NCBI RefSeq assembly: GCF_053078305.1
Contig: NZ_CP166879.1
DNA: 64,000 nt
Direction: 5' to 3' (one strand)
The translations under genes and the position numbers were made by a program. The notes under the pieces are model-generated. The model saw only the letters and a list, made by a program, of their open reading frames with translations, was not told the origin of the DNA and did not search any database. This document shows, one piece after another, positions 7,711 through 27,895 of the stretch. Each line of letters starts with the position of its first letter. Position 1 is the first letter of the stretch.

Positions 7711-7727
7711 GTTTTGAGGGGTAATTT

Positions 7728-8273: not shown

Positions 8274-8464
8274 TGACAAGCTTTGATTTTCCATAATCAA
8301 CTTGTCATAATTAAGTCACCGGAGCCTGAACAACTCCGGTGACTTCTGCGCTAAACGGGGACGTTTATGCGCACATACAATCCAAACTCTCTTCTCCCTT
8401 CACAGATGCAGAAATGTACCTGCGATTTTTTGCATCCAGCGTTTGACCTCTGCGGAGGTGAATC

Positions 8465-8920
8465 GTGAACCTCCTACAAGATGGCATCAAATTGCATCGC
8501 GGTAACTTCACCGCTATCGGCCAGCAGATCCAGCCTTATCTGGAGAACGGAAAATGCTTTCGCATGGTGCTTAAACCGTGGCGTGAGAAACGCAGTCTTT
8601 CCCAGAATGCACTCAGCCACATGTGGTACAGCGAAATCAGTGAATACCTCATCAGCAGGGGGAAATCGTTCGCTACTTCAGCATGGGTAAAAGATGCTCT
8701 CAAACACACATACCTCGGTTATGAAACCAAGGACCTGGTTGATGTCGTAACCGGCGAAATCACTACTATCCAGTCGTTACGCCATACCTCCGATCTTGAT
8801 ACCGGAGAGATGTATGTCTTCCTGTGTAAGGTTGAAGCCTGGGCGGTGAATATTGGCTGCCACCTGACTATTCCGCAGAGCTGCGAGTTCCAGCTGCTGC
8901 GCGACAAGCAGGAGGCGTAA
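8465..8920 (+). CDS. ybcN: NinB/YbcN-like nin-region protein
   Basis: 151-aa ORF at the head of the DLP12-type order ybcN-ninE-ybcO-rusA-ylcG-Q; contains an S-Q-N motif. Confidence 0.5.
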
Positions 8921-9090
8921 TGGCTACACCGCTTATTCGTGTCATGAACGGACACATCTACAGAGTACCAAATCGTCGTAAGCGTAAACCGGAGCTGAAG
9001 CCTTCCGAAATACCAACACTGCTCGGATATACCGCCAGCCTGGTTGATAAAAAATGGTTGCGACTGGCAGCAAGGAGGAATCATGGCTGA
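8920..9090 (+). CDS. ninE: NinE-like small basic protein
   Basis: 56-aa ORF ([30 protein letters not shown]...); ATG overlaps the preceding stop; below the ORF-track cutoff. Confidence 0.5.
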   Translation: MATPLIRVMNGHIYRVPNRRKRKPELKPSEIPTLLGYTASLVDKKWLRLAARRNHG

Positions 9091-9373
9091 TTTGAGAAAA
9101 GCAGCGCGTGGTCGGGAATGCCAGGTAAGAATCCCTGGCGTATGTAATGGCAACCCTGAAACGTCTGTACTGGCACATATCCGGCTGACTGGATTGTGCG
9201 GCACCGGTACCAAACCGCCAGACCTGATTGCCACCATTGCATGTTCTGCCTGCCACGACGAAATCGACCGCCGCACACATTTTGTCGATGCTGCATATGC
9301 AAAAGAATGCGCGCTGGAAGGTATGGCGAGAACACAGGTTATCTGGCTGAAAGAGGGGGTTATTAAGGCGTGA
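9083..9373 (+). CDS. ybcO: YbcO-like DUF1364 protein (putative nuclease, Cys-rich)
   Basis: [35 protein letters not shown]... matches DLP12 YbcO as recalled; real start is the internal ATG of ORF 9044-9373. Confidence 0.75.
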
Positions 9374-9732
9374 ATACCTACAGCATCACATTACCCTGGC
9401 CTCCGAGCAATAATCGCTATTACCGCCATAATCGCGGGCGCACGCACGTCAGCGCAGAGGGGCAGGCATACCGCGATAACGTCGCCCGAATCATTAAAAA
9501 CGCAATGCTGGATATCGGCCTGGCTATGCCTGTGAAAATCCGCATTGAGTGCCACATGCCGGATCGCCGTCGCCGTGACCTGGATAATCTGCAAAAAGCC
9601 GCTTTTGACACACTCACTAAAGCAGGTTTCTGGCTGGATGATGCTCAAGTCGTTGATTACCGCGTTGTGAAGATGCCTGTTACCAAAGGTGGGAGGCTGG
9701 AACTGACCATCACCGAAATGGGGAATGAATGA
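9370..9732 (+). CDS. rusA: Holliday-junction resolvase RusA
   Basis: 120-aa protein [31 protein letters not shown]... matches E. coli RusA as recalled. Confidence 0.9.
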
Positions 9733-9869
9733 TGTTTGAGTTTTATATGGCAGAACTTCTTCGCCACCGCTGGGGGCGTCTGCGCTTATATCGTTTCCCC
9801 GGTTCTGTTTTGACCGATTACCGAATACTGAAGAGTTACGCCAAAACCCTGACAGGAGCAGGAGTATGA
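9729..9869 (+). CDS. ylcG: YlcG-like small protein
   Basis: 46-aa [29 protein letters not shown]... immediately after rusA, as in DLP12. Confidence 0.5.
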
Positions 9870-9954
9870 AGTCAGAGATAACAATCAACTAATACTGTTT
9901 TGTTGATTTTTGCTTGTAATTGGCGTTCTGGTCTGATTTTTGTGGAGTAAGTTG

Positions 9955-10338
9955 ATGCGTGATATTCAGATGGTTCTTGAGCGTTGGGGAGCGTGGGCGG
10001 CTAATAATCATGAAGATGTGACCTGGTCGTCCATTGCCGCCGGTTTTAAGGGATTAATTCCTTCAAAAGTAAAATCTCGCCCGCAATGTTGTGACGATGA
10101 CGCGATGATCATTTGCGGGTGCATGGCCCGTCTGAAAAAGAACAACAGCGATTTGCACGATTTATTAGTAGATTATTATGTAGTCGGTATGACATTCATG
10201 TCACTGGCAGGTAAGCATTGCTGCTCTGATGGTTATATCGGGAAAAGGTTACAGAAGGCTGAGGGTATAATTGAAGGGATGTTAATGGCATTAGATATCC
10301 GGTTAGAGATGGATATCGTTGTTAATAACTCTAATTAA
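9955..10338 (+). CDS. quuD: Late-gene antiterminator Q (QuuD / phage-21-type)
   Basis: [34 protein letters not shown]... matches the DLP12/21-type Q as recalled; ORF track starts 15 nt upstream. Confidence 0.8.
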
Positions 10339-10527
10339 TATGCCAGTTGTTTACTAAAAGTTATTAAAAATGGGGCGTTGCAACGCCCCCCAAAATAAAG
10401 GGTAATATATAACAGAAGGTTTATATAGTTAGAAGCAAGGTTGTGCTCCTAAAGGAAGTGGCTTGAGGGAGCCACTTATATGTTGGGGAGGCAAAGCCTC
10501 CCGCAACATATCTTTTTCGTAATCAGA

Positions 10528-11626
10528 TTAGAACTGGTAAACCAGACCTACAGCAACGATGTCATCAGTGCTTACACCGAGTGCTTTAGTGAAGTCATTT
10601 TTGTCAAGCAGGTTGATTTTGTAATCAACGAAAGTAGACATATTTTTGTTGAAGTAATAGGTTGCACCTACATCAACATATTTGACTAAGTCCTGATCGC
10701 CCCATACTCCAAGATCCTTACCTTTAGATTGCAGGTAAGCAACGGACGGACGCAGACCGAAATCGAACTGATATTGTGCAACAGCTTCGAAGTTTTGAGC
10801 TTTATTAGCAACGAAGTGATCAGCAAATACAGTCATATTCTGGGTTTCAGAATAGGTAGTGGCCAGGTAAATGTTGTTAGCGTCATATTTCAGACCTGCG
10901 GCCCAAACTTCTGCATTTTTACCGGAAGCAAATACTTCAGGAAGAACTTTCCCTGCATTAACTTGAGTGTCGGTACGATCAGATTTCGCATAAGTTGCAC
11001 CGATACCGAATCCTTCGTATTCATAGGTAGCAGAGAAACCGAAGCCATCACCGTTACCTTCGGTGTAGTTATCGAAATCGCTACGATCGTTTTTGCCTTG
11101 GTACTGAGCAGCAAAGTTCAGACCATCAACCAGACCAAAGAAGTCGTTGTTACGATAGGTTGCAACACCAGTGGTACGACCAGTCATGAACACATCTGTT
11201 TGGGTCCAGGGTATCGCCACCGAATTCTGGCAGAACGTCAGTCCACGCACCGATGTCGTATGCTACACCGTAGTTACGGCCGTAATCGATTGAGCCGTAG
11301 TCACCGAATTTCAGGCCTGCAAATGCAAGACGGGTTTTGTCTTTGGAGGAACCTTGAGATTCAGCGCGGTTGCCTTTGAATTCATATTCCCACTGACCGA
11401 AACCAGTCAGCTGATCGTTGATTTGGGTTTCGCCTTTGAAGCCCAGACGAACATAAGTAGTATCACCATCATCTGCATCGTTAGAGGAAAAGTAGTGCTT
11501 GGCATTAACTTTCCCGTACAGATCCAGCTTGTTACTGTCTTTATTATAAATTTCAGCTGCCTGAGCAGACATCGCCATCAGTACTGATGCAGCTACAGCA
11601 GAAATTGCCACTGTTAATTTTTTCAT
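10528..11626 (-). pseudogene. nmpC: OmpC/NmpC-family porin moron, disrupted by a frameshift near 11150-11250
   Basis: Two overlapping minus-strand ORFs (10528-11250, 11150-11626) jointly encode a porin with signal peptide and C-terminal VYQF; the 1099-nt span is 1 nt off a multiple of three; an extra C in gataccCtggaccc near 11215 is suspected. Confidence 0.7.
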
Positions 11627-12214
11627 CGTGAGCCCTTTTTTTTGAACTATTATTAAAAAATGATGTCACTGCGAGATAAATATTCATCTAATCAATGTGA
11701 TTATTTCAAGATGTAAGTTTTAGTTTCTCATTTAATTTGTGAGGTAGATCTCTATTTTTATCTGAGCTTTTTCTATCGAAACCTATTTATGGCTCTTATT
11801 TGAACAAAAATAAACCTATTAGCTAATTTATATTAATGGCTGTTATTTATGGAGGTTCTATAATTCGGCGGTTTAATTTAAATCAACTAAAAATAACGCC
11901 GGAAATTATTTATTGGATATTTGTTGAGGTTTTCTTATGTATTTGTGGTGGTGTTTTGAACACTCGGTAGCATTCTCATAAATATCATTCAGTGGTTTAC
12001 GTACGTAAAAAATTGGTTATGCTGTTAAGAGTGGTTACTTCGTCACACAGCTTAAACCCGCCGTCGAGCTGGTTTTTCCATTTTTTGAGTCTCGATATTA
12101 GCTGATAACTCAATACCTGAGTTATTCACTGACTCCGAGTCTGTTACGTTTCTGCTTTTTTGCGATACGTTGTATTCCCTCAATTTACACCCGCTTTGTC
12201 TGCGAGGTGGGGTT

Positions 12215-12430
12215 ATGAAATCCATGGATAAGTTAACAACGGGTGTCGCCTATGGCACCTCAGCAGGTAGTGCCGGTTACTGGTTTTTACAGCTGCTCGA
12301 TAAAGTCACGCCCTCACAGTGGGCAGCAATAGGTGTGCTGGGTAGCTTGGTATTTGGCCTGCTGACGTACCTGACAAACCTTTATTTCAAGATTAAAGAA
12401 GATAAGCGCAAGGCTGCGAGAGGTGAATAA
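12215..12430 (+). CDS. S: Class II holin/pinholin (S21-type) with dual-start motif
   Basis: [29 protein letters not shown]... matches phage-21 S as recalled; Met-Lys-Ser-Met dual start. Confidence 0.8.
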
Positions 12431-12927
12431 TGCCTCCATCATTACGAAAAGCCGTTGCTGCTGCTATTGGTGGCGGAGCAATTGCTATAGCATCAGTGTT
12501 AATCACTGGCCCAAGTGGTAACGATGGTCTGGAAGGTGTCAGCTACATACCATACAAAGATATTGTTGGTGTATGGACTGTATGTCACGGGCATACAGGA
12601 AAAGACATCATGCTCGGTAAAACGTATACCAAAGCAGAATGCAAAGCACTCTTGAATAAAGACCTTGCCACTGTCGCCAGACAAATTAACCCGTACATCG
12701 AAGTCGATATACCGGAAACAACGCGCGGCGCTCTTTACTCATTCGTTTACAACGTGGGTGCTGGCAATTTCAGAACATCGACGCTTCTTCGCAAAATAAA
12801 CCAGGGCGATATCAAAGGCGCATGTGATCAGCTACGTCGCTGGACATATGCTGGCGGTAAGCAATGGAAAGGTCTCATGACTCGTCGTGAGATTGAGCGT
12901 GAAATCTGTTTGTGGGGTCAGCAATGA
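12430..12927 (+). CDS. R: SAR endolysin (signal-anchor-release lysozyme, R21-type)
   Basis: Hydrophobic N-terminal SAR domain ([20 protein letters not shown]) followed by a lysozyme-like domain. Confidence 0.85.
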
Positions 12928-13385
12928 ACAGAGTAACCGCGATTATCTCCGCTCTGGTTATCTGCATCATCGTCTGCCTGTCATGGGCTGTTAATCATTA
13001 CCGTGATAACGCCATTACCTACAAAGCCCAGCGCGACAAAAATGCCAAAGAACTGAAGCTGGCGAACGCGGCAATTACTGACATGCAGATGCGTCAGCGT
13101 GATGTTGCTGCGCTCGATGCAAAATACACGAAGGAGTTAGCTGATGCGAAAGCTGAAAATGATGCTCTGCGTGATGATGTTGCCGCTGGTCGTCGTCGGT
13201 TGCACATCAAAGCAGTCTGTCAGTCAGTGCGTGAAGCCACCACCGCCTCCGGCGTGGATAATGCAGCCTCCCCCCGACTGGCAGACACCGCTGAACGGGA
13301 TTATTTCACCCTCAGAGAGAGGCTGATCACTATGCAAAAACAACTGGAAGGAACCCAGACGTATATTAATGAGCAGTGCAGATAG
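12924..13385 (+). CDS. Rz: Spanin inner-membrane subunit Rz
   Basis: [39 protein letters not shown]... matches lambda Rz as recalled. Confidence 0.85.
13144..13326 (+). CDS. Rz1: Spanin outer-membrane lipoprotein Rz1, embedded in Rz in the +1 frame
   Basis: [24 protein letters not shown]...PPPPPAW... with lipobox and proline-rich stretch; matches lambda Rz1 as recalled. Confidence 0.8.
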
Positions 13386-13416
13386 AGCTGCCCATATCGA
13401 TGGGCAACTCATGCAA

Positions 13417-13701
13417 TTATTGTGAGCAATACACACGCGCTTCCAGCGGAGTATAAATGCCTAAAGTAATAAAACCGAGCAATCCATTTACGAATGTTTG
13501 CTGGGTTTCTGTTTTAACAACATTTTCTGCACCACCACAAATTTTTGCTGCATCGACAGTTTTCTTCTGCCCAATTCCCGAAACGAAGAAATGATGGGTG
13601 ATGGTTTCCTTTGGTGTTACTGCTGTAGGTTTGTTTCCAACAGTAAACGTCTGTTGAGCACATCCTGTAATAAGCATTGCCAGAGCGGCAGAAAACAACA
13701 T
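13417..13701 (-). CDS. bor: Bor lipoprotein (serum-resistance-associated)
   Basis: Lipobox LITGC and ...ETITHHFFVSGIGQKKTVDAAKICGGAENVVKTETQQTF... match lambda Bor as recalled; the lambda N-terminal MKK is absent because the A-run is one nt shorter. Confidence 0.85.
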   Translation of the reverse strand: MLFSAALAMLITGCAQQTFTVGNKPTAVTPKETITHHFFVSGIGQKKTVDAAKICGGAENVVKTETQQTFVNGLLGFITLGIYTPLEARVYCSQ

Positions 13702-13876
13702 TTTTTCATCTTATTATCCTGCATTGTTAAAAACGGCAGAATCCTATGTGACAACAATTAAACGATAGTTAAATGGATTGATGAAAATTAAAACTATATA
13801 GGTGGATGCTCAGCCTATTGGAGGAGGGGGGGCACTCAGAATCCTGTGGAATGAAATAAACCGCTCTATCTGTCCA

Positions 13877-14101
13877 TTACCCTTTTAGCTGCGCTGTATC
13901 GTCGCCGTATTCCCGCATTAACCATGACCGTAGCCCGACGGGGAATTCCTTCTGCGTGAGTGTGCGGGAATAATCAAAAACGATGCACACCGGGTTTTTA
14001 CCGCGTTTATGGTTCGCGGGGGTGTCCCTCATGCTCGCCAGTCCTGTGCGGGGGTGGAAGAAACAGGACGTGTATTCAGGTCTGTGTGACTGTGGTCGCA
14101 A
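13877..14101 (-). CDS. Hypothetical protein between bor and cos
   Basis: 74-aa ORF; positional analogue of lambda/DLP12 ORFs downstream of bor; no motif recognised. Confidence 0.3.
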   Translation of the reverse strand: MRPQSHRPEYTSCFFHPRTGLASMRDTPANHKRGKNPVCIVFDYSRTLTQKEFPVGLRSWLMREYGDDTAQLKG

Positions 14102-14149
14102 GACTTTTGTCGTTCAGCTATTAAATCCCATTACGAAGTAGACCAGAAC

Positions 14150-14375
14150 GGCCAACGGGTCCTTTCCGGCGATCCGACAGGTTACGGGGCGGCGACCTCG
14201 CGGGTTTTCGCTATTTATGAAAATTTTCCGGTTTAAGGCGTTTCCGTTCTTCTTCGTCGTAACTTAATGTTTTTATTTAAAATACCCCCTGAAAAGAAAG
14301 GAAACGACAGGTGCTGAAAGCGAGCTTTTTGGCCTCTGTCGTTTCCTTTCTCTGTTTTTGTCCGTGGAATGAACA
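14150..14375 (+). promoter_or_regulatory. Helper prophage cos site (cosQ-cosN-cosB); cosN cohesive-end sequence GGGCGGCGACCT at 14187-14198
   Basis: gttacggggcggcgacctcgcgggttttcgctatttatgaaaattttccgg matches the lambda cos region as recalled and sits directly upstream of Nu1. Confidence 0.85.
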
Positions 14376-14895
14376 ATGGAAGTCAACAAAAAGCAGCTGG
14401 CTGACATTTTCGGTGCGAGTATCCGTACCATTCAGAACTGGCAGGAACAGGGAATGCCCGTTCTGCGAGGCGGTGGCAAGGGTAATGAGGTGCTTTATGA
14501 CTCTGCTGCCGTTATAAAATGGTATGCCGAAAGGGATGCTGAAATTGAGAACGAAAAGCTGCGCCGGGAGGTTGAAGAACTGCGGCAGGCCAGCGAGGCA
14601 GATCTCCAGCCAGGGACTATTGAGTACGAACGCCATCGACTTACGCGTGCGCAGGCCGACGCACAGGAACTGAAGAATGCCAGAGACTCCGCTGAAGTGG
14701 TGGAAACCGCATTCTGTACTTTCGTGCTGTCGCGGATCGCAGGTGAAATTGCCAGTATTCTCGACGGGATCCCCCTGTCGGTGCAGCGGCGTTTTCCGGA
14801 ACTGGAAAACCGACATGTTGATTTCCTGAAACGGGATATCATCAAAGCCATGAACAAAGCAGCCGCGCTGGATGAACTGATACCGGGGTTGCTGA

Positions 14896-14921
<26 letters not shown>
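14376..14921 (+). CDS. Nu1: Terminase small subunit Nu1
   Basis: 181-aa protein near-identical to lambda Nu1 as recalled (MEVNKKQLADIFGASIRTIQNWQEQGMPVLRGGGKGNEVLYDSAAV...). Confidence 0.95.
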
Positions 14922-17850
<2,929 letters not shown>

Positions 17851-17977
17851 TTATGTCTATCATCTCCCCGTAGTTGTCCGCATCGTTCGCCAACTCCACT
17901 GAAACCCTTGCTGCGGCTGGAATGTCGTTTTCCATACTTTTGATGACCGTTCATCACACTTCCAGGTTTTCGCGGTT

Positions 17978-18031
17978 TTGTGTATTGCAATGTGTATTGC
18001 AAATTGGCGATCGGGATGGGTGTGTATTGCA
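17978..18031. repeat. Three copies of TGTGTATTGCAA upstream of the island integrase (attL-proximal, putative integrase binding sites)
   Basis: Copies at 17978-17989, 17990-18001 and 18020-18031; the same motif occurs in tandem at 29588-29610 near the other island end. Confidence 0.7.
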
Positions 18032-18050
18032 AATCTCTTGAGGGCTGTTA

Positions 18051-19292
18051 ATGGCTATTGAAAACAAACTCAGTGACAAACTGTTAAAGAGTCTTGTCGG
18101 AAAACGGCAGGACAAACAAAAAACAATAGCGGATGGGCGCGGGTTGTCTGTGCGTGTAAGCATGGTTGGGGGGATCAGCTTTGTTTTTTACTATCGTCTT
18201 GGTGGCAGGGAATCCCCTCCGGTATGGCTTACACTTGGGCGCTATCCTGATATGTCTCTTGCAACAGCCAGGCGCATGCGTGATCAGTGCCGTGAGTGGC
18301 TGGCTGAAAATCTGGACCCCCGCAGGCAAATAAAACTTGCCGCCGAAAAAACCATGCAACCAGTGACCGTAAGGGATGCGCTGTTTTACTGGTACGACAA
18401 TCACGCCACAACAGCCAGAAAAGAGCATGAATATTTAATAAAACGATTTGAAAAGCATATCTTCCCCTATATCGGTGATATGGCTATAGAACAGTGCAAA
18501 TTACACACATGGCTTGCCGTCTTTGACAGGATCAAAAAAAATGCGCCTGTTATGTCTGGTGCAATTTTTCTTGATATCAAACAGGCGTTGCGTTTTTGTC
18601 GCGTCAGGCAATACATCGCGTGCGATCCCTTTGGCGATATTAACGTAAGTTATGTCGGGCGCTCATCCGGTATAAGGGATCGCGTTCTTAATATCAATGA
18701 AACAGCGGATGTATGGTCTTATGCTTACGGTAATAATTTGCTGACACTGTCATCAATACATAACAGAAGAATAATGGTTATCTGCCTGGTGTTTGGTTGC
18801 CGTCAGCAGGAGGCGAGGTTATCCACATGGGACGAATGGGATTTAAAAAACTGGGTATGGACAGTCCCAAAAGAGCACAGCAAAAACAAGGAGGCCATAG
18901 TAAGGCCTGTTCCTGACGGCATAAAACAATGGCTCGTTAATCTTTACGCAGAAACAAAAAATCGCGGTTATGTTGTCGGTTGTGCTTTGCAAAGGGCGAC
19001 AATAACAGGGGCTGCAAACAGAATATGCAGGCGTCTTGGTCATGATATTAATGGCTTGTGGTGCATACATGATTTCAGGCGCACATTTTCCACTGCGCTT
19101 AATGATATGGGGGCGGATCCTTATATTGTCGAACTTCTTTTAGGTCATAAAGTGAAAGGGGTTGCCGGTGTTTACAATAAAAGCAGGCATATAAAGAAAA
19201 AACTTGAGGTGCTTAATATGTGGGTTAATTACCTTAATACGATAGCAGGATTTAACAACAACGTTATCGAGCTTAATAAAGAGGTGGTGTGA
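18051..19292 (+). CDS. int: Tyrosine integrase (P4-type, N-terminal arm-binding DUF4102-like domain)
   Basis: 413-aa ORF; N-terminal region resembles P4-family integrases; C-terminal catalytic motifs HDFRRTF, LLGH and VYNKS (Tyr). Confidence 0.9.
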   Translation: MAIENKLSDKLLKSLVGKRQDKQKTIADGRGLSVRVSMVGGISFVFYYRLGGRESPPVWLTLGRYPDMSLATARRMRDQCREWLAENLDPRRQIKLAAEKTMQPVTVRDALFYWYDNHATTARKEHEYLIKRFEKHIFPYIGDMAIEQCKLHTWLAVFDRIKKNAPVMSGAIFLDIKQALRFCRVRQYIACDPFGDINVSYVGRSSGIRDRVLNINETADVWSYAYGNNLLTLSSIHNRRIMVICLVFGCRQQEARLSTWDEWDLKNWVWTVPKEHSKNKEAIVRPVPDGIKQWLVNLYAETKNRGYVVGCALQRATITGAANRICRRLGHDINGLWCIHDFRRTFSTALNDMGADPYIVELLLGHKVKGVAGVYNKSRHIKKKLEVLNMWVNYLNTIAGFNNNVIELNKEVV

Positions 19293-19293
19293 T

Positions 19294-19551
19294 ATGGCAA
19301 TTTATTCTCTTGTTGATGAAAACGATTTGCGCACAATGAAGGACATTGATCGGTTCATTCGTGAAAAAGAGTGCATAGCACTTACCACGCTGGCAAACTC
19401 AACACGCTGGAAAATGGAGCAGGCAGGTAAATTCCCGCGACGTATCAAGATCGGTGAACGTGCGGCAGGGTATCGACTTTCAGAGGTTCAGGCATGGATC
19501 CGTGGTGAGTGGCATCCTGGATGGAAACCTGGAAAAACAAAACAGCAATAA
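19294..19551 (+). CDS. alpA: AlpA-family excisionase/transcriptional regulator
   Basis: 85-aa HTH protein (ALTTLANSTRWKMEQAGKFPRRIKIGERAAGYRLSEVQAWI) immediately downstream of int. Confidence 0.7.
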   Translation: MAIYSLVDENDLRTMKDIDRFIREKECIALTTLANSTRWKMEQAGKFPRRIKIGERAAGYRLSEVQAWIRGEWHPGWKPGKTKQQ

Positions 19552-19605
19552 CCAGTAAATAACGCCCCTCATCAAGAGGGGTTTTTGTCTATAGGGTAAA
19601 ACGCG

Positions 19606-20184
19606 ATGAATAAAAATATTGCCGTGACGGGCAAGGGGTACGCTCGTCCAGTGAAAAAATTCTGTGATATTCGTGATCTTGTCGTTCTGCGCTTTGATGG
19701 TGTGAGCGTTCGCGTGGTGTATGTGAACGGCGATCCGTGGTTTGTTGCCGTTGACGTGTGCGCTGCGCTGGAAATTGTTGATCACAAGGTTGCGTTACGC
19801 CGTCTCGATGATGATGAAAAGGGGGAGTGTTTAATACCCACCCCAGGTGGAAATCAAACAATGCGAACGGTATGCGAGTCAGGGTTCTACAAACTAATCG
19901 CCAGAAGTCGGAAAGCTGTTACTCCTGGCACGTTCGCCCGTCGTTTCAGTAACTGGGTATTCAGAAATGTGATACCAGGTATCAGAAAAACGGGGGCTTA
20001 TGGTATCCCGTGGGGGGCATTACAGGATTTTTCCCGCCGTAAAGAGCAATATCAAATAAGTGCCAGCGAGAAGGGGAGGGAGCTACAGGCATGTAAGCGC
20101 AAAAAACGTGAACTGGAGGAAGAAGAAAAAAGGCTGATACGTGAATATCAGCCTGAGTTTTACTTTGGTGAGCGTATTCAGTAA
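19606..20184 (+). CDS. Bro-N domain protein (prophage antirepressor-like)
   Basis: N-terminal Bro-N-like region (VRVVYVNGDPWFVAVDVCAALEI...FYKLIARSRKA) with a charged coiled C-terminus. Confidence 0.6.
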   Translation: MNKNIAVTGKGYARPVKKFCDIRDLVVLRFDGVSVRVVYVNGDPWFVAVDVCAALEIVDHKVALRRLDDDEKGECLIPTPGGNQTMRTVCESGFYKLIARSRKAVTPGTFARRFSNWVFRNVIPGIRKTGAYGIPWGALQDFSRRKEQYQISASEKGRELQACKRKKRELEEEEKRLIREYQPEFYFGERIQ

Positions 20185-20521
20185 CCACACGCGGTGCTGA
20201 TTATACGGTACATCGTGTTAACCGAGAAGCTACCCACCAGCAAGGCAAAATCTTCTGCTAAAAAATGACATATGGCCAGTCGTCCGGAAAGCATGAAATT
20301 TTACAAAAATGGAAAATGAAGATTTTTATTGTGCTGGTGGGTAAAAACAAAAAGCGCCCCGTTGCCGGAGCGCCCTTGTGAACAATTAACCTGCTGCGAA
20401 AAAATTGGATCAGTGCAGGGAAATTATATCAACTGTGTGAAGAAGCGCCACAATTGCCAGTTTAGCTTTGCGGCGAACGCGTCAATAAAGAATATTCTTT
20501 CTTTAAATTCTGTTTGTGTAT

Positions 20522-20551
20522 TTTTTCGTAGTTTTTCGTAGTTTTTCGTAA
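20522..20551. repeat. Tandem decamer repeat (TTTTTCGTAG)x3 in island intergenic region
   Basis: ttttttcgtagtttttcgtagtttttcgtaagg; a related palindromic motif cgaaattttcgtag occurs at 29194-29207. Confidence 0.8.
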
Positions 20552-20647
20552 GGAGAAAGAGCGGCGCGTATGCACCGCTAAGGAGTTTATTTTCATGACT
20601 TATGCAGCTTTCAATCTTAGCACCGCCGTAGCTGGTGGACAAGGCTA

Positions 20648-20875
20648 TCAGCCAGGCGGTCGGTTTTTAGTGGCTTTTAACCGCCGTGGGTATTTCTCGA
20701 CAAAATCTTCAAGGGCAAATTTTTCTGGTGGCACTAAGCGCGGCGCTGGTGGTGGTATTTTTGTTCTGGTTAGTTCTTCCTCAAGTCTGGCGCAGGCTTC
20801 TAACTGCCTTTGCCGGATGATTTCATCATCTTGCGTTTGCGTGTCTTGTATTGGTGATAGTGTGTTGTTGGTCAT
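20648..20875 (-). CDS. Hypothetical protein (island, leftward operon)
   Basis: 75-aa acidic ORF downstream of the RHH gene on the minus strand; weak RBS. Confidence 0.35.
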   Translation of the reverse strand: MTNNTLSPIQDTQTQDDEIIRQRQLEACARLEEELTRTKIPPPAPRLVPPEKFALEDFVEKYPRRLKATKNRPPG

Positions 20876-20932
20876 GATACTGCCCTGTAAAGCAATGCGC
20901 CGGAGTACCTCACGCCACGGCGCTGATAGTGA

Positions 20933-21238
20933 TTATTCTGATTCTTGGGTCTTGCGACGCTGGAGTTCTTCGCGTGCAACGGTGACAAGTTGCCCGATTT
21001 CTTCCGCTGCTTTGATGCCGATTTGTTCGACCTTAGCCAGAGCATCCAGTGAAGACACAAGGGGATTTTCTCCGCTGCCTTCTGCCTGGCGGCGGGCGAT
21101 TTCACCGCGCATGGCGGTTACTATGAATCCGGCGTTGCTTTCACCGTCCAGTTTTACGGATTCCATGCCTTCAATAACATCATGCGGGATCCGAGCTGTC
21201 AGTGATTGTGATTTTGCGTTTTTTGAACCTGTAGCCAT
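20933..21238 (-). CDS. Ribbon-helix-helix (CopG/Arc-like) putative regulator, divergent from the island rightward operon
   Basis: SLTARIPHDVIEGMESV resembles an RHH beta-strand plus helix; ATG 21238 with RBS gaggat preferred over the TTG at 21253. Confidence 0.45.
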   Translation of the reverse strand: MATGSKNAKSQSLTARIPHDVIEGMESVKLDGESNAGFIVTAMRGEIARRQAEGSGENPLVSSLDALAKVEQIGIKAAEEIGQLVTVAREELQRRKTQESE

Positions 21239-21797
21239 CTGTAATCCTCTCAATGAAAGTGTAAGACAATATACACATAAAAAGTCTTACATAAAAGCAT
21301 TGACATGTAAGCCACCTATAAATAAAGTTACTTACACCTTGTTAATGCAAGGTGCAGAAACGACGAAACCCGGCAGTGCGCTAACACTAACCGGGCTTCT
21401 AACCACCAACGATAGAAAGCGTATCGAGGTAGCTATGAGAAATCATACCACACACCCGCAAGGGCGGGACTCGCACAACCTGAATAAATACATCTGGCGT
21501 TTTCTGGCCCGAAAAAACCAGTTGATCGCCAGTGTCGAAAATAGCTATGATTCCCGCGCACCTCATAAAACGGGTGCCGGGATTGGCGTCCTGGGCAAAA
21601 CTGAAGCGCATAACACGCGCCCCGCGTGTTTTTTTGTGCCGCATAGTCACACCTTATCAATGGTGGGCTGTACGGGGGCGGAGCAATCCGCGCCGGTTTC
21701 TTCAGTGTCCGGTTACGCCAACCCTGTACAGTCCGCCACCAGCGAAATTGGCGTTTCCGGTGGCGGTTATCTTAACCACACTGAGGAGGCTGCCAAC

Positions 21798-21989
21798 ATG
21801 GCTACTATCCCTACCCTTGTACATTCTCAAACCGCCTTTCTCTGGCGCTTTATCATCTTTGGCGCGTCAGACCATCAAATCATCCACGTCACCGCCTGGA
21901 CGGAACGCGAAGCGCGTAGCCGTTGCCCGTCCGGTTGTGTTGCTGTATTCGCCGCCCGTATTCGTCAGGAGGTGTGCCATGTGCAATAA
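21798..21989 (+). CDS. Icd-like small protein (host cell-division inhibitor family, tentative)
   Basis: 63-aa ORF with strong RBS gaggagg; MATIPTLVHSQTAFLWRFIIFGASDHQIIHV... recalled as resembling Icd-like proteins of P4-type islands; it is the only plausible part of ORF 20595-21989. Confidence 0.4.
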   Translation: MATIPTLVHSQTAFLWRFIIFGASDHQIIHVTAWTEREARSRCPSGCVAVFAARIRQEVCHVQ

Positions 21990-22431
21990 AACCACACCGG
22001 ACGCAGCCGCCGCGCTCACTACACTGATGCACGCGCTGATTGATATTTCTGTTATTGCTGACAGGGCGCATAAGCACGCCACCAGTGAAACAGAATATGC
22101 CGGGGCTTTCGTTCCTCATTCGCTGGCGGTTATGCAACTTAGTGCTGATATGGCGCTGAATGAGGCCAAAGCTATCCTGATTTCTGATTGTGAAAATGGG
22201 GGGGGGGTTATGCGTGATGATCGTTTTAATGCCCTGAAACAGGAGTTTGATGGTGCGCCTGATGATGCAGGTGATGCGCTTTCGTCAATATCCGAACTGA
22301 TAAGAGTGGCCTTTTTCTTACTTGGCACGAAAGAATATAAATCAACTGGAATAGACGTACTGAATATTACTGCTGATTATGCGGAATATATGGCAGAAGT
22401 GGATTTAAGAAAGATAACGGACAGGGGGTAA
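21979..22431 (+). CDS. Hypothetical protein (island early operon)
   Basis: RBS aggagg before ATG 21979; the upstream part of ORF 21532-22431 is rejected as a spurious extension. Confidence 0.5.
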   Translation: MCNKTTPDAAAALTTLMHALIDISVIADRAHKHATSETEYAGAFVPHSLAVMQLSADMALNEAKAILISDCENGGGVMRDDRFNALKQEFDGAPDDAGDALSSISELIRVAFFLLGTKEYKSTGIDVLNITADYAEYMAEVDLRKITDRG

Positions 22432-22432
22432 T

Positions 22433-22666
22433 ATGCGTGATATTTACCACGAAACAATAGACCGCGCATTTAGTGCCCTTGCTTACGCTGAAGGTATGTA
22501 CGAAATATTGCAAATGTGTCTGGAAACATTTGGCGATAATGAGCGTGATGTAAAGAAGGCGCGGATTATTAAATCACTGATAACTCTCCTTGAACCTGTA
22601 ATAACAGAGTTGCAGGAAATAGACTTATTGCACGACAGATATAACGAACAGCACACCGGAGAATAA
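22433..22666 (+). CDS. Hypothetical protein
   Basis: 77-aa ORF tightly packed after the preceding gene (start 2 nt after its stop). Confidence 0.45.
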   Translation: MRDIYHETIDRAFSALAYAEGMYEILQMCLETFGDNERDVKKARIIKSLITLLEPVITELQEIDLLHDRYNEQHTGE

Positions 22667-22671
22667 AAATA

Positions 22672-22971
22672 ATGAAACTTAAATATCCTGGCTTAACTGC
22701 CAGTGGCAACACTCACCCTAAATTTACGCGCGGTGATATTTACCGCGACCAGTACGGCGGCACGGTAATGATTAAGGGCGTGGCGGGACGGTGCGTAACT
22801 TACCGCCGTGAAGGCTACGAATATGATTGCGTGATGCCTGTTTATCAGTTCCGGCGTGATTTTTCTCTGGTACAGACCGCGCCGCATAACGTGCCCACCA
22901 GCAACGCCAGGGCACGGGCAAACATCCAGAAGCTGAAAACCATGATTAACGGATTCAGGGGTAAAAAATGA
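22672..22971 (+). CDS. Hypothetical protein
   Basis: 99-aa ORF; 3' end overlaps the rep start by 4 nt. Confidence 0.45.
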   Translation: MKLKYPGLTASGNTHPKFTRGDIYRDQYGGTVMIKGVAGRCVTYRREGYEYDCVMPVYQFRRDFSLVQTAPHNVPTSNARARANIQKLKTMINGFRGKK

Positions 22972-24377
22972 AACTGGCACCGAACGTAAAACGATTACCG
23001 AAAGATAAATACACCGAAGCGGTTATTTTTGCGGGTATTGATGCTCACTCATTCGCAGAGCATTACATCATTGCACAGGCCAAAAAAGCAGGCGATCCAG
23101 TCCCTCCCGTTTATCTGGGGCGTTATCAGTTAAGCGAACTGGATAACCTCCAGATTGTTGATGATGGGCGATACAGGGCGACGGTGATACGCGCCGGAAA
23201 TATTGAAGAGCCGCAGCTGTTAACCATCGCCACGAAACTGGCGAGCGCCGGAGTCCAGGAGGCGCGGCTACTTTCTGAAAATTTCGAATTGCTGGAGGAA
23301 TGGAGCGACCAGCTTCCACGGCTTAGGGAGGCATGGGAACGCGGGGAAAGCCTGGTCATGAAAAAAATTCCCCAGCGAAAAACCACGCTACCGATGAGCG
23401 TTGGATCTACCGGATACGACACACAGCTTGATTACGTGGTAAAGGGGATTATTCCGGCATCGTCGCTTTGCAGCATATACGGGGCGAGCGGTTCCTATAA
23501 ATCATTCCTTGCCGGATCGTGGGCGTGTCACGTTTCCACGGGCCGCCAGTGGGGAGGCCGCAGGGTGGCGCATGGCGCTGTTCTCTATGTGGTTGGTGAA
23601 GGCGGTATCGGCGTTCCGCGTCGTGTAAAAGCCTGGGAGGTTGTGCACGGTGAGCAGGTGAAAAATCTGTATCTGGTAAACCGTCCCATCTTTCCGGCTG
23701 TCCCGCTTGATGTTGATGAACTGGTTATTGCTGCCAGTCAGGTGGAGAGGGAAACGGGTAAACCTGTTCGCATGATTATTCTGGACACGCTGGCGCGTTG
23801 CTTTGGCGGCAATGATGAAAATGACTCCCGCGACATGGGGGCATTTATCCGTGGTTGTGACGAGCTTAAACGGCGCACAGGGGCTACGGTGCTGGTGGTT
23901 CACCATTCCGGCAAGGATGAAACAAAGGGGGCGCGTGGTTCCAGTGCATTTCGTGCATCACTGGACGCTGAATACCGGATACGCAGGGAGGACGCAGGAA
24001 GCGAAGCGCTGGTTATCTCATGCACCAAAATGAAGGACGCGGAGGAACTCAAAGAGGCTGCCTATGATTTGCGGGTGGTGGAGCTTTTTACCGACGCTGA
24101 CGGGGAGTTAATTACGTCGCTGGTGGTGGTGGATAAGCCGCGCCCTCCCGTTGAACTGGAGCGCATCGAGGAGGCAGGCAACAAGACGGAAAACCATACC
24201 GCGCTATGGGGGTGCATCCGTTCACGCACACAGAACGGCGACAAGTGCACGATCCCGCTGTTACGTGACGATATGAAAAAGCTGGGGTATGACACAAAAC
24301 ACCTTAAACGATGGTTAGCCAAACTGGAAAAAGACGACGTGATCTACATTGACGGTGATGATGTAGGACCACTGTAA
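22968..24377 (+). CDS. rep: Replication initiator/helicase (RepA-like AAA_25 RecA-fold ATPase with N-terminal primase-C-like region)
   Basis: Walker A-like SIYGASGSYKSFLA, Walker B-like RMIILDTLAR, and TVLVVHHSGKD; followed directly by an iteron array. Confidence 0.75.
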   Translation: MKLAPNVKRLPKDKYTEAVIFAGIDAHSFAEHYIIAQAKKAGDPVPPVYLGRYQLSELDNLQIVDDGRYRATVIRAGNIEEPQLLTIATKLASAGVQEARLLSENFELLEEWSDQLPRLREAWERGESLVMKKIPQRKTTLPMSVGSTGYDTQLDYVVKGIIPASSLCSIYGASGSYKSFLAGSWACHVSTGRQWGGRRVAHGAVLYVVGEGGIGVPRRVKAWEVVHGEQVKNLYLVNRPIFPAVPLDVDELVIAASQVERETGKPVRMIILDTLARCFGGNDENDSRDMGAFIRGCDELKRRTGATVLVVHHSGKDETKGARGSSAFRASLDAEYRIRREDAGSEALVISCTKMKDAEELKEAAYDLRVVELFTDADGELITSLVVVDKPRPPVELERIEEAGNKTENHTALWGCIRSRTQNGDKCTIPLLRDDMKKLGYDTKHLKRWLAKLEKDDVIYIDGDDVGPL

Positions 24378-24582
24378 AAAGTGGGCATTAAAAGTGGGAA
24401 AGGTGGGCGATTTAACGTAATTTTAACAAAATCACCCACTTTCCCACGTGTATATATCCCAAAAAGTGGGCACTAAAAAAATACCTATGAAACAAGATGA
24501 TATAAATCCCAAACTTCCCACGTTGGACGAAGTGGGAAAACGTAAAAAGTGGGCGAAAAAAGTGGGTAGAGGTGGGCAAATG
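24375..24582. repeat. Island origin of replication: iteron array with GTGGG core (AAAGTGGGCA/AAGTGGGAAA, direct and inverted copies)
   Basis: About 8 direct and 3 inverted copies of (A)AGTGGG(C/A) within ~200 bp immediately 3' of rep. Confidence 0.7.
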
Positions 24583-24831
24583 ACTCAAAAACACAGAGAC
24601 AGAACAGAGCCAAAATATAAAGCGTTAGACATGACAGAGCACGCTTTAAAGGTGGCAATCAGGGTAATAGACCGCCACACGCGGGAAGGATACGCGAAGG
24701 AACATCCCGACCTGATAAGCGCATTCATGACCACAGCGGCGGCAAACTTTGCCACGCTGACAGAACGGGAGATAGCCGAAGCGGAACAGGTAACAACCAT
24801 CAACGTTAAAACCGGAGAGGTGGAATCATGA
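24580..24831 (+). CDS. Hypothetical protein
   Basis: In-frame ATG just after the iteron array; the upstream part of ORF 24448-24831 overlaps the iterons and is unlikely to be coding. Confidence 0.4.
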   Translation: MTQKHRDRTEPKYKALDMTEHALKVAIRVIDRHTREGYAKEHPDLISAFMTTAAANFATLTEREIAEAEQVTTINVKTGEVES

Positions 24832-25238
24832 CAGCACAGATAGCCGCTTACGGGCGGCTGGTGGACGACCCGCAGGTAAAACAAACCAGCAAGGGCACAC
24901 CGATGACGCTGGCGCGTATGGCGGTATCTCTGCCATGCAGCCAGGCACAGGACGGGCAGGCTACGTTATGGCTATCAGTGATGGCATTTGGTAAGCAGGC
25001 CGACTTCCTGGCTAAACATCAAAAAGGCGATGTTGCCAGCGTATCCGGCACGATGCAGGTAAGCCAGTGGACCAGACAGAACGGGGAAACGCGGCAGGGT
25101 TATCAGGTTATTGCAGACAGTGTAATCAGTGCCCGTGCTGCCCGTCCTGGCGGGAGCAGACGTACAACCACAGGCACACAGGGTAATCAGCCACCAGCGG
25201 GAGGCGATGACCCTTACGGTGACGGTATTCCGTTCTGA
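24828..25238 (+). CDS. ssb: Single-stranded DNA-binding protein (SSB-like)
   Basis: OB-fold signature (LWLSVMAFGKQADFL...KGDVASVSGTM) and acidic C-terminal tail DDPYGDGIPF. Confidence 0.7.
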   Translation: MTAQIAAYGRLVDDPQVKQTSKGTPMTLARMAVSLPCSQAQDGQATLWLSVMAFGKQADFLAKHQKGDVASVSGTMQVSQWTRQNGETRQGYQVIADSVISARAARPGGSRRTTTGTQGNQPPAGGDDPYGDGIPF

Positions 25239-25248
25239 GGGGGTGACG

Positions 25249-25521
25249 ATGGTACATGACCGCATAGCGGAGGAACTCGAGGCAAAAGGCTTTTACCGGA
25301 GGGCGGCGGCGCGATGGGGTGAAGTTATGCAGCTGGTGGAGACAGACAAGGAACGGCATCAGGTTACGATGCGACGGCTGGAATGTTCCAGGAAGGCACA
25401 GAGGCCACCGGAGCCGCCGGATAACTTCGGAGACCTGAAAAAAGCAGTAGATCGCACTTATGCCGAAATGGGTATGGATGGTGTAAGCGATGAAATATGG
25501 CGTAATTACCCAGACAGCTAA
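25249..25521 (+). CDS. PerC-family transcriptional activator-like protein
   Basis: AEELEAKGFYRRAAARWGEVMQLVETDKERHQV resembles the PerC/Pch signature; RBS gagggg; real start internal to ORF 25129-25521. Confidence 0.5.
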   Translation: MVHDRIAEELEAKGFYRRAAARWGEVMQLVETDKERHQVTMRRLECSRKAQRPPEPPDNFGDLKKAVDRTYAEMGMDGVSDEIWRNYPDS

Positions 25522-25527
25522 TCAACA

Positions 25528-25549
25528 GCCGGAGAAATCCGGCTTTTTT
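25528..25549 (+). terminator. Intrinsic terminator (GCCGGAGAAATCCGGC + T6)
   Basis: Perfect hairpin plus T-run directly after the PerC-like gene; the identical hairpin recurs at 27802-27824. Confidence 0.7.
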
Positions 25550-25561
25550 GTACCCAAAAAA

Positions 25562-25598
25562 AGCCCGATAAGTACAGGAGGCATCTTATCGGGCTTTT
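25562..25598 (+). terminator. Second tandem intrinsic terminator
   Basis: agcccgataag...cttatcgggct hairpin followed by tttt. Confidence 0.55.
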
Positions 25599-25676
25599 GC
25601 ATATGAGGTTTTTTTGGTGCACTGACACACATGATCGGGGTAATCATTTCATAATTTGCAACACAACTCAACATCA

Positions 25677-25737
25677 TTGCACAAAATGCAATCCTGATTA
25701 TAATCAGAGCTGGATGAACATCCAGTTCTGATTTTTT
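25677..25737 (+). promoter_or_regulatory. Sigma70-like promoter followed by a hairpin and U-run, upstream of the island capsid/packaging operon
   Basis: TTGCAC (25677-25682), 16-nt spacer, TATAAT (25699-25704); hairpin ctggatg-aa-catccag (25710-25725) then ttctgatttttt. Confidence 0.5.
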
Positions 25738-25760
25738 AAGTCAAAGAGGAATTTCTTACT

Positions 25761-25967
25761 ATGGCTGAAGAGAAAAAAGGCGGTGTTTCGGTGTACATAA
25801 GCCCCGAAATCGTGGAGGTGCTCAAGCAGCGCCACAAAAAAAACTATGAGGCTGGCGTAGCGGCTGGACTGGATCCGCTGATGACGCCGGAGCCGTCGAT
25901 AGGTTCACTTGTGCGCTCTTATTTACTTGCGGCGCTTGGGATGCATAAAAATTATGGTGGTGAATAA
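25761..25967 (+). CDS. Hypothetical small protein (first gene of island morphogenetic operon)
   Basis: 68-aa ORF with RBS agagga; stop overlaps the capsid gene start. Confidence 0.4.
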   Translation: MAEEKKGGVSVYISPEIVEVLKQRHKKNYEAGVAAGLDPLMTPEPSIGSLVRSYLLAALGMHKNYGGE

Positions 25968-27022
25968 TGACAGTAAAAGCAATGGCACTTACAACTAACC
26001 AGCTTTTCGCGTACCTGAATCGCGGGGATATTGCAGAATTTAAATTCAGTCCGCTGTTTACCACGCTGTTTTTCCCGAACGTGGCGACCTTCAACACCCA
26101 GAACATCATGCTGGACACCCTGGACATTGAAGAGGTTACGATGTCAGCGTTCTGTTCGCCTATGGTGGGTAGTCAGGTCCAGCGCGATAAAGGGTACGAA
26201 ACCAGCACGATTAAACCAGGCTACATGAAACCCAAACACGAAATCGATCCAACAAAAACCATCATGCGCATGGCTGGAGAAGATCCGGCACAGCTTAACG
26301 ACCCTACCTACCGCCGTATGCGCCTGATTACTGGCAACATGCGCCGCCAGATAAACGCCATTAAAGCGCGCGTGGAATGGCTGGCGGTGAATGCGATAAC
26401 GACCGGAAAAAACATCATTGAGGGCGAAGGCATAGAACGCTATGAAATCGACTGGAAAATACCGGAAAACTGCATCATAGAGCAGGCCAAGGGTAAAAAA
26501 TGGTCCGAGCATGATAAAGATATTTACGATCCAATCTATGACATCGAACTATACGCAGATCAGGCAGGTTGCCCCGCCAACGTCATGATTATGGGCGCTG
26601 AGGTATGGCGCACGTTACGCAGCTTTAAAAAATTCCGCGAACTGTACGATCTTTCCCGTGGTTCAGAATCCGCCGCAGAACTGGCCTGTAAAAACCTGGG
26701 TGAAGTAGTGAGCTTTAAAGGCTATCTGGGCGATATTGCCCTTATCGTCTATTCCGGCAAATACACTGACAGCGACGGTACCGAAAAATATTTCCTTGAG
26801 CCTGATTTGCTGGTCCTGGGTAACACCAACAATAAAGGGCTGGTGGCCTATGGTGCGATTATGGATCAGGAAGCGGTAAGAACGGGCGCAACGCAAAACA
26901 TGTTCTACCCGAAAAACTGGATTGAAGACGGCGATCCGGCGATTGAGTACGTTCAGACGCACAGCGCACCGCAGCCGGTACCGGCAGATATTCGCAAATT
27001 TGTTACCGTCAAAATTGCTTAA
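25967..27022 (+). CDS. Major capsid protein homologue (diverged lambda gpE-like, HK97 fold)
   Basis: Collinear with the helper E at 32160-33185: FKFSPLFTTLFF / FKFDPLFLRLFF, KPGYMKPKHEIDP / TPGYVKPKHEVNP, DPTYRRMRLITGNMRRQINAI / DPAYRRRRIIMQNMRDEELAI. Confidence 0.8.
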   Translation: MTVKAMALTTNQLFAYLNRGDIAEFKFSPLFTTLFFPNVATFNTQNIMLDTLDIEEVTMSAFCSPMVGSQVQRDKGYETSTIKPGYMKPKHEIDPTKTIMRMAGEDPAQLNDPTYRRMRLITGNMRRQINAIKARVEWLAVNAITTGKNIIEGEGIERYEIDWKIPENCIIEQAKGKKWSEHDKDIYDPIYDIELYADQAGCPANVMIMGAEVWRTLRSFKKFRELYDLSRGSESAAELACKNLGEVVSFKGYLGDIALIVYSGKYTDSDGTEKYFLEPDLLVLGNTNNKGLVAYGAIMDQEAVRTGATQNMFYPKNWIEDGDPAIEYVQTHSAPQPVPADIRKFVTVKIA

Positions 27023-27033
27023 CGGGGGATTCT

Positions 27034-27369
27034 ATGGACACTCCATACATTGAGTTATTTGCAGGCAGTCAGCAGGTATCCACGACGCTGGTACATTTTG
27101 CCGCTGATGCTGGCGTTATTCAGGAATTTACCCCGCTGATGCTGGCGGACAATGGCGAGTTTAAGCCGTGGGATGGTCAGGAATCTGGCAAGGCTGTTTA
27201 TCTGACCTCGTACCCCGTGGACACGTCAAAGCAGAAATCAGCACAGTGTTACAAGACGGGGATATTTAATATCGCCGCCGTAAACTGGCCTGAGAGCGCC
27301 GACACTGACGCGAAAAAATGCGCCGCCTTTGCGGGTTCTGGCGTATCCGTTCAGCCGCTGGCGCGATAA
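27034..27369 (+). CDS. Head decoration protein homologue (diverged lambda gpD-like)
   Basis: 111 aa; TPLMLADNGEFKPWDG...AAFAGSGVSV parallels the helper D (31766-32104) [17 protein letters not shown]...[11 protein letters not shown]. Confidence 0.7.
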   Translation: MDTPYIELFAGSQQVSTTLVHFAADAGVIQEFTPLMLADNGEFKPWDGQESGKAVYLTSYPVDTSKQKSAQCYKTGIFNIAAVNWPESADTDAKKCAAFAGSGVSVQPLAR

Positions 27370-27381
27370 GCAGGGGAAACG

Positions 27382-27795
27382 ATGGCAACGAATGAAAGCA
27401 TCATGGCGCTACCGCTGGCGAGTAAATTTAAAGCAGAAGCGCGGGCAATGGCTGACAGAGGTTTATCAACCTACGAGGCCGTATATCAACTCAACAAACT
27501 GGAAGAGCAGGACAAGCCGCGCGCTGATGCGATTATGGCGCTTCATGAACATAACGACTATCAGCCGCTGTTACGTGCAATGGCAAACGTGCCATGTATT
27601 AGCGTCGATAATGCTCGTGAAATCCTGAACATGACCATAGAGCAGGAGCGCCCAAAGGTTGCGCCGGAGCTTACCGCAGCCTTTGAAAACTTTATGGACA
27701 TGCACAGCCCGAAAGCCGTATCACCCGGCATGGCATACGACGGCAGAAACCAGGGCGATGAAGGCGACGTCGATCGCATACTGAAAACCATCTGA
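27382..27795 (+). CDS. Hypothetical protein (island morphogenetic operon)
   Basis: 137-aa ORF followed by a strong terminator; no family recognised. Confidence 0.45.
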   Translation: MATNESIMALPLASKFKAEARAMADRGLSTYEAVYQLNKLEEQDKPRADAIMALHEHNDYQPLLRAMANVPCISVDNAREILNMTIEQERPKVAPELTAAFENFMDMHSPKAVSPGMAYDGRNQGDEGDVDRILKTI

Positions 27796-27801
27796 CATAA
27801 G

Positions 27802-27824
27802 GCCGGAGAAATCCGGCTTTTTTT
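27802..27824 (+). terminator. Intrinsic terminator (GCCGGAGAAATCCGGC + T7)
   Basis: Same hairpin as at 25528; ends the capsid operon just before the island cos. Confidence 0.7.
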
Positions 27825-27825
27825 A

Positions 27826-27895
27826 CGGGTCCTTTCCGGCATATGGACCCGTTACGGGGCGGCGACCTCGCGGTTTTTCGCTATTTATGAGCTTT
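27826..27895 (+). promoter_or_regulatory. Island cos site: cosN identical to the helper (GGGCGGCGACCT at 27857-27868), with a distinct downstream cosB-like region
   Basis: gggtcctttccggc...gttacggggcggcgacctcgcggtttttcgctatttatga aligns with the helper cos at 14155-14222, then diverges before terS. Confidence 0.7.

Follow-up and report, generated by a model that had tools for sequence, protein, structure and literature searches.

Five repeated words at the two ends of a helper-embedded phage satellite as probable arm-type binding sites of its integrase

In the window analysed here (the whole 64,000-nucleotide stretch of contig NZ_CP166879.1, assembly GCF_053078305.1) a phage satellite carries five copies of a short word containing TGTATTGCA, three near one end and two near the other, and these words are probably arm-type sites to which the heterobivalent tyrosine integrase (Int) of the satellite binds. 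The first-pass annotation had read the repeats as integrase arm-type or accessory sites which define attL and attR and lie too far inside the element to be the crossover core. Our analysis of the sequence supports this view, as Int possesses an arm-binding domain, the motif is invariant and keeps a fixed spacing amid unrelated flanks, and the same layout, with other words, is found in sister PICIs and in satellite P4. It had also proposed that the repeats locate the boundaries of the element, which the fixed spacing from the core does allow.

The motif and its interpretation have been known since 2023 and what we describe is an independent rediscovery, since Tommasini, Mageeney and Williams (2023, NAR Genom Bioinform 5:lqad036; PMC10111431), who named such elements helper-embedded PICIs (HE-PICIs), reported the same word, the same geometry and the same hypotheses. 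Each element has two copies of their "doubled attP motif", tgTGTATTGCantgTGTATTGCa, in the same orientation, one lying 81 +/- 2 bp upstream of the attP centre and the other 132 +/- 2 bp downstream of it (PMC10111431). As hypotheses for the protein that binds it they named the Int arm domains first, and also AlpA and an unknown protein (PMC10111431). A later experimental test was not found in our literature searches on the motif and on HE-PICIs. To that work we add two modest points: the int-proximal arm has a conserved fifth site, and the layout is a general one.

The satellite and its crossover site in the helper portal gene

The satellite is an 11.84-kb element (17851-29690, + strand) recognized as an HE-PICI by its gene content (PMC10111431) and placed in the same orientation as the late operon of the helper. 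It splits a lambda-type portal gene flanked by the late genes Nu1, A and W to its left and by C, D and E to its right, and when the two portal halves (17021-17850 and 29691-30462) are joined they give a 533-aa protein matched end to end by Pfam Phage_portal_2. The gene set begins with int (18051-19292), encoding a tyrosine integrase of 413 aa with arm-binding, central and catalytic domains, followed by an alpA-like gene of the excisionase/transcriptional regulator family (19294-19551; phrog_2790, phrog_66), whose product is probably the recombination directionality factor, and a gene for a Bro-N anti-repressor-like protein (19606-20184). Further along are a primase/helicase gene (22968-24377), ssb (24828-25238), an E-like capsid gene whose product is 42% identical to the helper E (25967-27022), a D-like decoration gene (27034-27369), a scaffold-like ORF (27382-27795) and a Nu1-like terS, encoding a small terminase subunit 36% identical to the helper Nu1 (27990-28544). 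All of these are on the + strand, co-oriented with the late operon. Because of the split portal gene and this set of genes, the element is a phage satellite embedded in its lambda-like helper prophage, and by inserting and excising such satellites turn the helper portal gene off and on.

Other repeats were seen inside the island. Two cos-like segments in inverted orientation (27825-27901 and 28649-28742) flank the Nu1-like terS and contain the lambda cohesive-end word GGGCGGCGACCT. Their identity to the helper cos region (14155-14274), which lies just upstream of Nu1, is 84% and 79%. Three repeats of the AAAAAGTGGGCA type (24376-24393, 24461-24478 and 24544-24561), 85 and 83 bp apart and directly past the primase/helicase gene, are probably the iterons of the satellite replication origin. 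In addition an identical 22-nt hairpin-plus-T-run, GCCGGAGAAATCCGGCTTTTTT, is present at 25528-25549, before the capsid module, and at 27802-27823, before the terS module, and the two look like duplicated intrinsic terminators. Iterons or packaging repeats were therefore rejected as the identity of the five words, for the island has separate candidates for both and the spacing of the words is tied to the crossover site.

The same portal insertion was found, 97-98% identical, in 63 of the 5426 complete E. coli genomes. A further 174 of them have a related satellite with int DNA about 65% identical, in most or all cases within the major capsid gene (this location was seen in the 4 of 4 loci that were fetched). 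At the protein level Int is 54% and 51% identical, in pairwise comparison, to the integrases of the capsid-gene (E:80) and protease-gene (C) satellites which bear the same motif. The 2023 survey mapped 491 HE-PICIs to 14 sites in nine lambda-type late genes, with three of the sites in B:Phage_portal_2 (PMC10111431). Our junction falls at portal residue 276, roughly position 235-246 of the profile, and of these three it is probably B:Phage_portal_2:241. A different location was observed in NZ_CP127262, where an HE-PICI (5200-17431) lies in a ClpP-like protease/capsid fusion gene of another PICI beside a tRNA-Ile gene, and is thus a satellite inside a satellite; the 2023 paper places this class at C:CLP_protease:110 (PMC10111431).

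The portal sequence stops at 17850 and its reading frame picks up at 29691. The alignment with intact portal genes extends to 17855 on the left side and, on the right side, starts at 29683 or 29689. The two junctions had been said to share only AT/TATG; what they in fact have in common is an imperfect 13-bp block (17843-17855 and 29683-29695), reading AAGGCGAT-T-TATG in the attL core and AAAGCCAT-G-TATG at attR. The first 8 bp of this block do not differ between the two ends in any other portal-site relative examined. Within attL (17843-17855, + strand) we infer a 7-bp overlap, AGGCGAT (17844-17850), after which comes the core-type half-site TTATG (17851-17855). The attR core (29679-29695, + strand) is correspondingly made of CATAA (29679-29683), the putative overlap AAGCCAT (29684-29690) and the portal GTATG. 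Since attR is CATAAAGGCGATGTATG in every other portal-site relative examined, the attP of these relatives was reconstructed as CATAA-AGGCGAT-TTATG, a perfect 5-bp dyad around 7 bp. Cores of tyrosine recombinases usually have this shape.

The predicted overlap is not the same at the two ends of this copy, AGGCGAT at attL and AAGCCAT at attR, the differences being at 17845/29685 and 17848/29688. Both are synonymous in the portal frame, and AGGCGAT is found at attR in all the other portal-site relatives examined. This pattern fits a heteroduplex overlap that segregated after integration from a variant attP, and this copy may excise poorly as a result of the mismatch.

The five words and the protein that reads them

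The arm next to int (P') carries a doubled motif composed of two tandem, exact TGTGTATTGCAA half-sites with a 12-bp period (17979-17990 and 17991-18002), which begins 128 bp inside the left junction (17850/17851). A third site on the same arm, a single exact TGTGTATTGCAA, is placed at 18021-18032, 18 nt past the pair and 18 nt ahead of the int ATG, the pair itself being 48 bp ahead of that codon. On the opposite arm (P) the doubled motif consists of CGTGTATTGCAA (29587-29598) followed by TGTGTATTGCGA (29599-29610), each matching in 11 of 12 positions, and it finishes 80 bp inside the right junction (29690/29691). The five words, all located by sequence match, are thus real, and lie on the + strand in one orientation as had been noted, the earlier coordinates being one base off. 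The published word is also present, as 17981-18000 and 29589-29608 both read TGTATTGCAATGTGTATTGC.

When the 64-kb window was searched on both strands for TGTGTATTGCAA with at most one mismatch, five matches were obtained against 0.39 expected, and these are exactly the five words; 0 of 100 shuffles gave five matches. The concern that the motif might simply be frequent by chance is therefore not borne out within the window. The doubled form TGTATTGCNNNNTGTATTGC occurs exactly twice in it, once at either end of the satellite. The sole further exact match to GTGTATTGC, at 13426-13434 on the - strand, is taken to be a chance one: it encodes ..VYCS at the 3' end of a helper bor/iss-like gene, and was rejected as a site because it is within that coding sequence. 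An inverted TGTATTGC singleton is also found within int (18608-18615, - strand), 557 nt past its start, and is probably due to chance; in parallel, the P4 record (L092, 3621-3632) also annotates one arm repeat inside int.

With the putative overlap centred at 17847 on the left and 29687 on the right, the P' pair begins about 132 bp after the centre and the P pair finishes 77 bp before it. Both pairs are co-oriented as in other HE-PICIs, at 77-80 bp on the P side and 132 bp on the P' side; the former distance shifts with the centre that is chosen, and the centre of the putative overlap gives 77 bp versus the published 81 +/- 2. In the excised circle, judged by the reconstructed attP, both pairs are upstream of int and about 210 bp apart.

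The protein best suited to read such words is suggested by Int itself. Its residues 7-94 (18069-18332) match Pfam Arm-DNA-bind_3 (PF13356, E 1.7e-16) and are followed by the central and catalytic domains, and the N-terminal stretch also matches the integrase N-terminal chains 3JTZ/3RMP and 3JU0 of the PDB. Among the HE-PICI site groups the arm domain shows 63-68% identity, the core-binding domain 42-53% and the catalytic domain 47-51%, so that the arm domain is the best conserved, which fits a constant arm word combined with a changing core specificity. Inspection of either arm of the 334-bp reconstructed attP revealed no other repeated word that the Int arm domain could use.

It is nevertheless conceivable, albeit unlikely, that the words are read not by the integrase but by the AlpA of the satellite, acting as an excisionase and/or as an activator of the int-alpA operon. 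The alpA gene directly follows int, and its product, a member of excisionase/regulator families, shares 33% identity with P4 Vis. AlpA identity is 63-65% among HE-PICI groups and 35-41% to non-HE PICIs, and the HTH region in particular is conserved among the former and differs in PICIs with other arm words. Covariation cannot separate Int from AlpA because both track the motif class equally well. Excisionase-type binding sites are described as typically direct repeats about one helical turn apart (PMC7498355), and the 12-bp period of the words agrees with this description. However, the sites of a directionality factor normally occupy one arm only, between the core and a separate set of arm-type sites, whereas here identical pairs are found on both arms. 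Assigning the words to AlpA would also leave the Int arm domain with no candidate word. Moreover the motif does not occur elsewhere in the island, not even in the region before the replication and packaging genes where an activator might act, and the equivalent repeats of P4, which bear the annotation of attP arm repeats, are not found at the late promoters regulated by Vis.

Binding by Int thus remains the reading that we prefer, and it can be put as a mechanism. The P arm, on the attR side, would hold two words and the P' arm, on the attL side just upstream of int, three, so arranged in the excised circle that the pairs would be about 77-81 bp before and about 130-132 bp after the core CATAA-AGGCGAT-TTATG. 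The N-terminal Arm-DNA-bind_3 domains of Int would grip the arm words while the central and catalytic domains grip the core, and attP, or attL together with attR, would in this way be folded into a recombinogenic complex by which the satellite enters or leaves the helper portal gene. There being five sites and one tetramer, not all of them would be occupied by a single complex.

Since the P' sites are 18-72 bp upstream of the int start codon, Int bound to them probably also damps its own expression. P4 Int and KplE1 IntS control their own genes in this manner, by direct DNA binding beside int that represses it (PMC2951348). One could go further and regard the int-proximal copies as mainly an operator for int, bound by Int, AlpA or a satellite repressor, with the distal pair serving for looping or being a by-product of little importance in synapsis; this we consider quite improbable. 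Its attractions are the position of the P' copies relative to the int ATG, the like-placed sites from which P4 Int and KplE1 IntS repress their own promoters, and the fact that in the circular form both pairs come to lie upstream of int, about 210 bp from each other. On the other hand a scan of 17750-18150 for sigma-70 promoters and terminators detected none, so that no sigma-70-like promoter is visible between the junction and int. This fits the published hypothesis that int is transcribed by read-through from the helper late operon (PMC10111431), which is itself at odds with a principal operator role. In addition the fixed distance of the distal pair is to the crossover site and not to any gene, across unrelated flanks, and this points to a role in recombination. 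An operator function is, in any case, compatible with arm-type binding and not exclusive of it.

We give hardly any credence to the idea that the words are bound by a host nucleoid protein or some other factor, or that they are functionless chance repeats. The 2023 paper does leave room for "some unknown DNA binding protein" (PMC10111431). Chance, however, is excluded by the word statistics, and a host factor would not explain why, in one host species, the integrase subclades each use a different word while the geometry stays the same. Nor was the IHF consensus WATCAANNNNTTR found in either arm with at most one mismatch.

Conservation of the arm words among related satellites

The question whether the repeats also accompany related integrases in other genomes, raised by the first-pass annotation, was answered by scanning IMG/VR with an alignment of three HE-PICI integrases. 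This gave 80 loci, 78 of them with upstream sequence, and a pair just upstream of int was found in every one of these (78/78). A second, co-oriented pair was present in 45 loci, 9.7-11.2 kb downstream. In each of the 33 remaining loci the sequence downstream extends for no more than 11.3 kb, which falls short of the 11,608 bp spanned from one pair to the other in the element described here. Lineages of the capsid-site group have unrelated DNA around the distal pair, and yet the distance from pair to core is fixed. An additional doubled motif was observed in one locus (L056, IMG/VR UViG_2778261172_000002), 2944 bp upstream of the int-proximal pair, and may mark a remnant or tandem HE-PICI end.

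The TGTATTGC half-sites, 100 in number and coming from 50 distinct contexts, were aligned. GTATTGC is present in 100 of 100 and the first T in 98 of 100; the base after the TGTATTGC core is A in 80% and the rest of the inter-core bases are variable. As the half-sites were picked with at most one mismatch their invariance is partly ascertained, although almost all of them had none.

The third P' site (18021-18032) is perfectly kept, with the same spacing, in two loci (L030 and L031) whose integrase is 89% identical, and the 18-nt spacer has diverged. With a weight matrix made from the half-sites the third site of the portal group gets a perfect score (20.5), the background of this matrix being 0.7 per kb at a score of at least 4. 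In the capsid (E) group a conserved ..GYGTTGCA.. is found 17 bp upstream of the pair, its scores ranging between 12.8 and -2.5; a similar candidate is present in the protease (C) group at the same 17-bp offset with a score of -4.1. Given these poor scores a fifth site in the E and C groups is a possibility only, and its position is not kept between site groups.

When our observations are set beside the 2023 description, the word, its two co-oriented copies and their spacing are the same, and so is the general plan, a satellite with int, alpA, Bro, primase and late genes co-oriented inside a lambda-type late gene. The difference is that the paper describes four half-sites whereas the portal-site lineage has a fifth copy at 18021-18032. 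The words serve as a ruler, readable from sequence alone, for the exact ends and the crossover point of helper-embedded satellites, an idea that is already in the literature.

Comparison with sister PICIs, P4, KplE1 and lambda

A pair of words with a 12-bp period was found on each arm in all five elements that were compared, and the geometry is kept while the word differs according to the integrase subclade. In the portal-site HE-PICI described here (word TGTGTATTGCAA) the P pair is 77-80 bp and the P' pair 130-132 bp from the core centre, and in the capsid-site HE-PICI (L002, word TGTATTGCA) these distances are 80.5 and 131.5 bp. Two PICIs that are not embedded and whose integrases are related to the HE-PICI Int have similar values. 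The PICI at fis (NZ_CP041628, reverse strand) carries TGTATAAACA twice at 659-682 and 16550-16573, with distances of 75 and 135 bp, and the thiM-leader PICI (NZ_CP031215) carries TGTGTGGTCAG twice at 651-676 and 10204-10229, with distances of 75.5 and 133.5 bp. In satellite P4 (NC_001609), which has tandem 12-mer pairs with the core GGGGGCAT, they are 63.5 and 122.5 bp. The 2023 paper calls the motif unique to HE-PICIs, which is true of the word, but the layout is common to the fis and thiM-leader PICIs and P4; for the fis PICIs the paper reports only the absence of the HE-PICI word (PMC10111431).

The identity block shared by attL and attR of the thiM-leader PICI, AGAAATACCCGTAT (511-524 and 10296-10309; rcnR/thiM site), is in the leader upstream of thiM and possibly within the thiM TPP riboswitch, so this satellite may target a riboswitch.

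The likeness to P4 extends to several details. P4 also has co-oriented tandem pairs of 12-bp direct repeats, one pair per arm. Its int-proximal pair stops 15 nt short of the annotated int start and is separated by about 122 bp from the core centre, to which the distal pair has a distance of about 63 bp. It likewise has a fifth single copy after the int-proximal pair, the gap being 15 nt in P4 and 18 nt here, and in the record both pairs and this fifth copy, which is at the int start, carry the annotation "attP arm sequence repeat". The arm repeats of the P4 attP were reportedly first described by Pierson and Kahn in 1987. The proteins are homologous as well, Int with its arm-binding domain being 23% identical to P4 Int over the full length and AlpA 33% identical to Vis/ORF88. 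Vis regulates the late promoters of P4, and the P4 arm word GGGGGCAT was found only around attP and int and not at those promoters. P4 differs in the word itself, in the orientation of the fifth copy (inverted in P4, direct here), in arms that are 10-15 bp shorter and in a 20-bp core that is annotated in its record. The integration target differs too, a tRNA-Leu gene for P4 and a phage gene for the satellite described here.

The presence of the layout in P4 and in the fis and thiM-leader PICIs suggests a simple rule for annotating the att sites of P4-type integrases. Beyond this, we offer as a speculation, and one that we hold with considerable doubt, that a constant and portable 2 + 3 arm scaffold (12-bp period, ~80/~130 bp) is common to the whole P4/PICI integrase clade and re-worded in each subclade, with the fifth, lineage-specific site setting directionality or int autoregulation under read-through from the helper late operon. 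If this were true, constant arms combined with a changing core of the CATAA-N7-TTATG type would explain how one clade was retargeted to at least 14 late-gene sites, and arm word and spacing could predict the boundaries and crossover points of satellites not yet known.

KplE1 resembles our satellite in that int adjoins attL and reads into the element, with arm-type sites just upstream of int (PMC2951348). There the integrase and the directionality factor have been demonstrated experimentally to repress int (PMC2951348), whereas here repression is predicted and a sigma-70-like promoter was not found upstream of int. The two also differ in that the TorI sites of KplE1 are apart from its arm sites, while a second set of sites is not visible here.

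The phage lambda differs from the satellite in the word and its spacing and in the Pfam family of the arm-binding domain, which here is Arm-DNA-bind_3, the P4/CP4 type; differently from lambda, moreover, the IHF consensus was not detected in the arms. The arm-type sites of the lambda attP, P1, P2, P'1, P'2 and P'3, are bound by the N-terminal domain of a heterobivalent tyrosine integrase. The same plan is recognizable in the satellite, with five arm sites disposed as 2 + 3 around a small core and an arm word that is unlike the core word.
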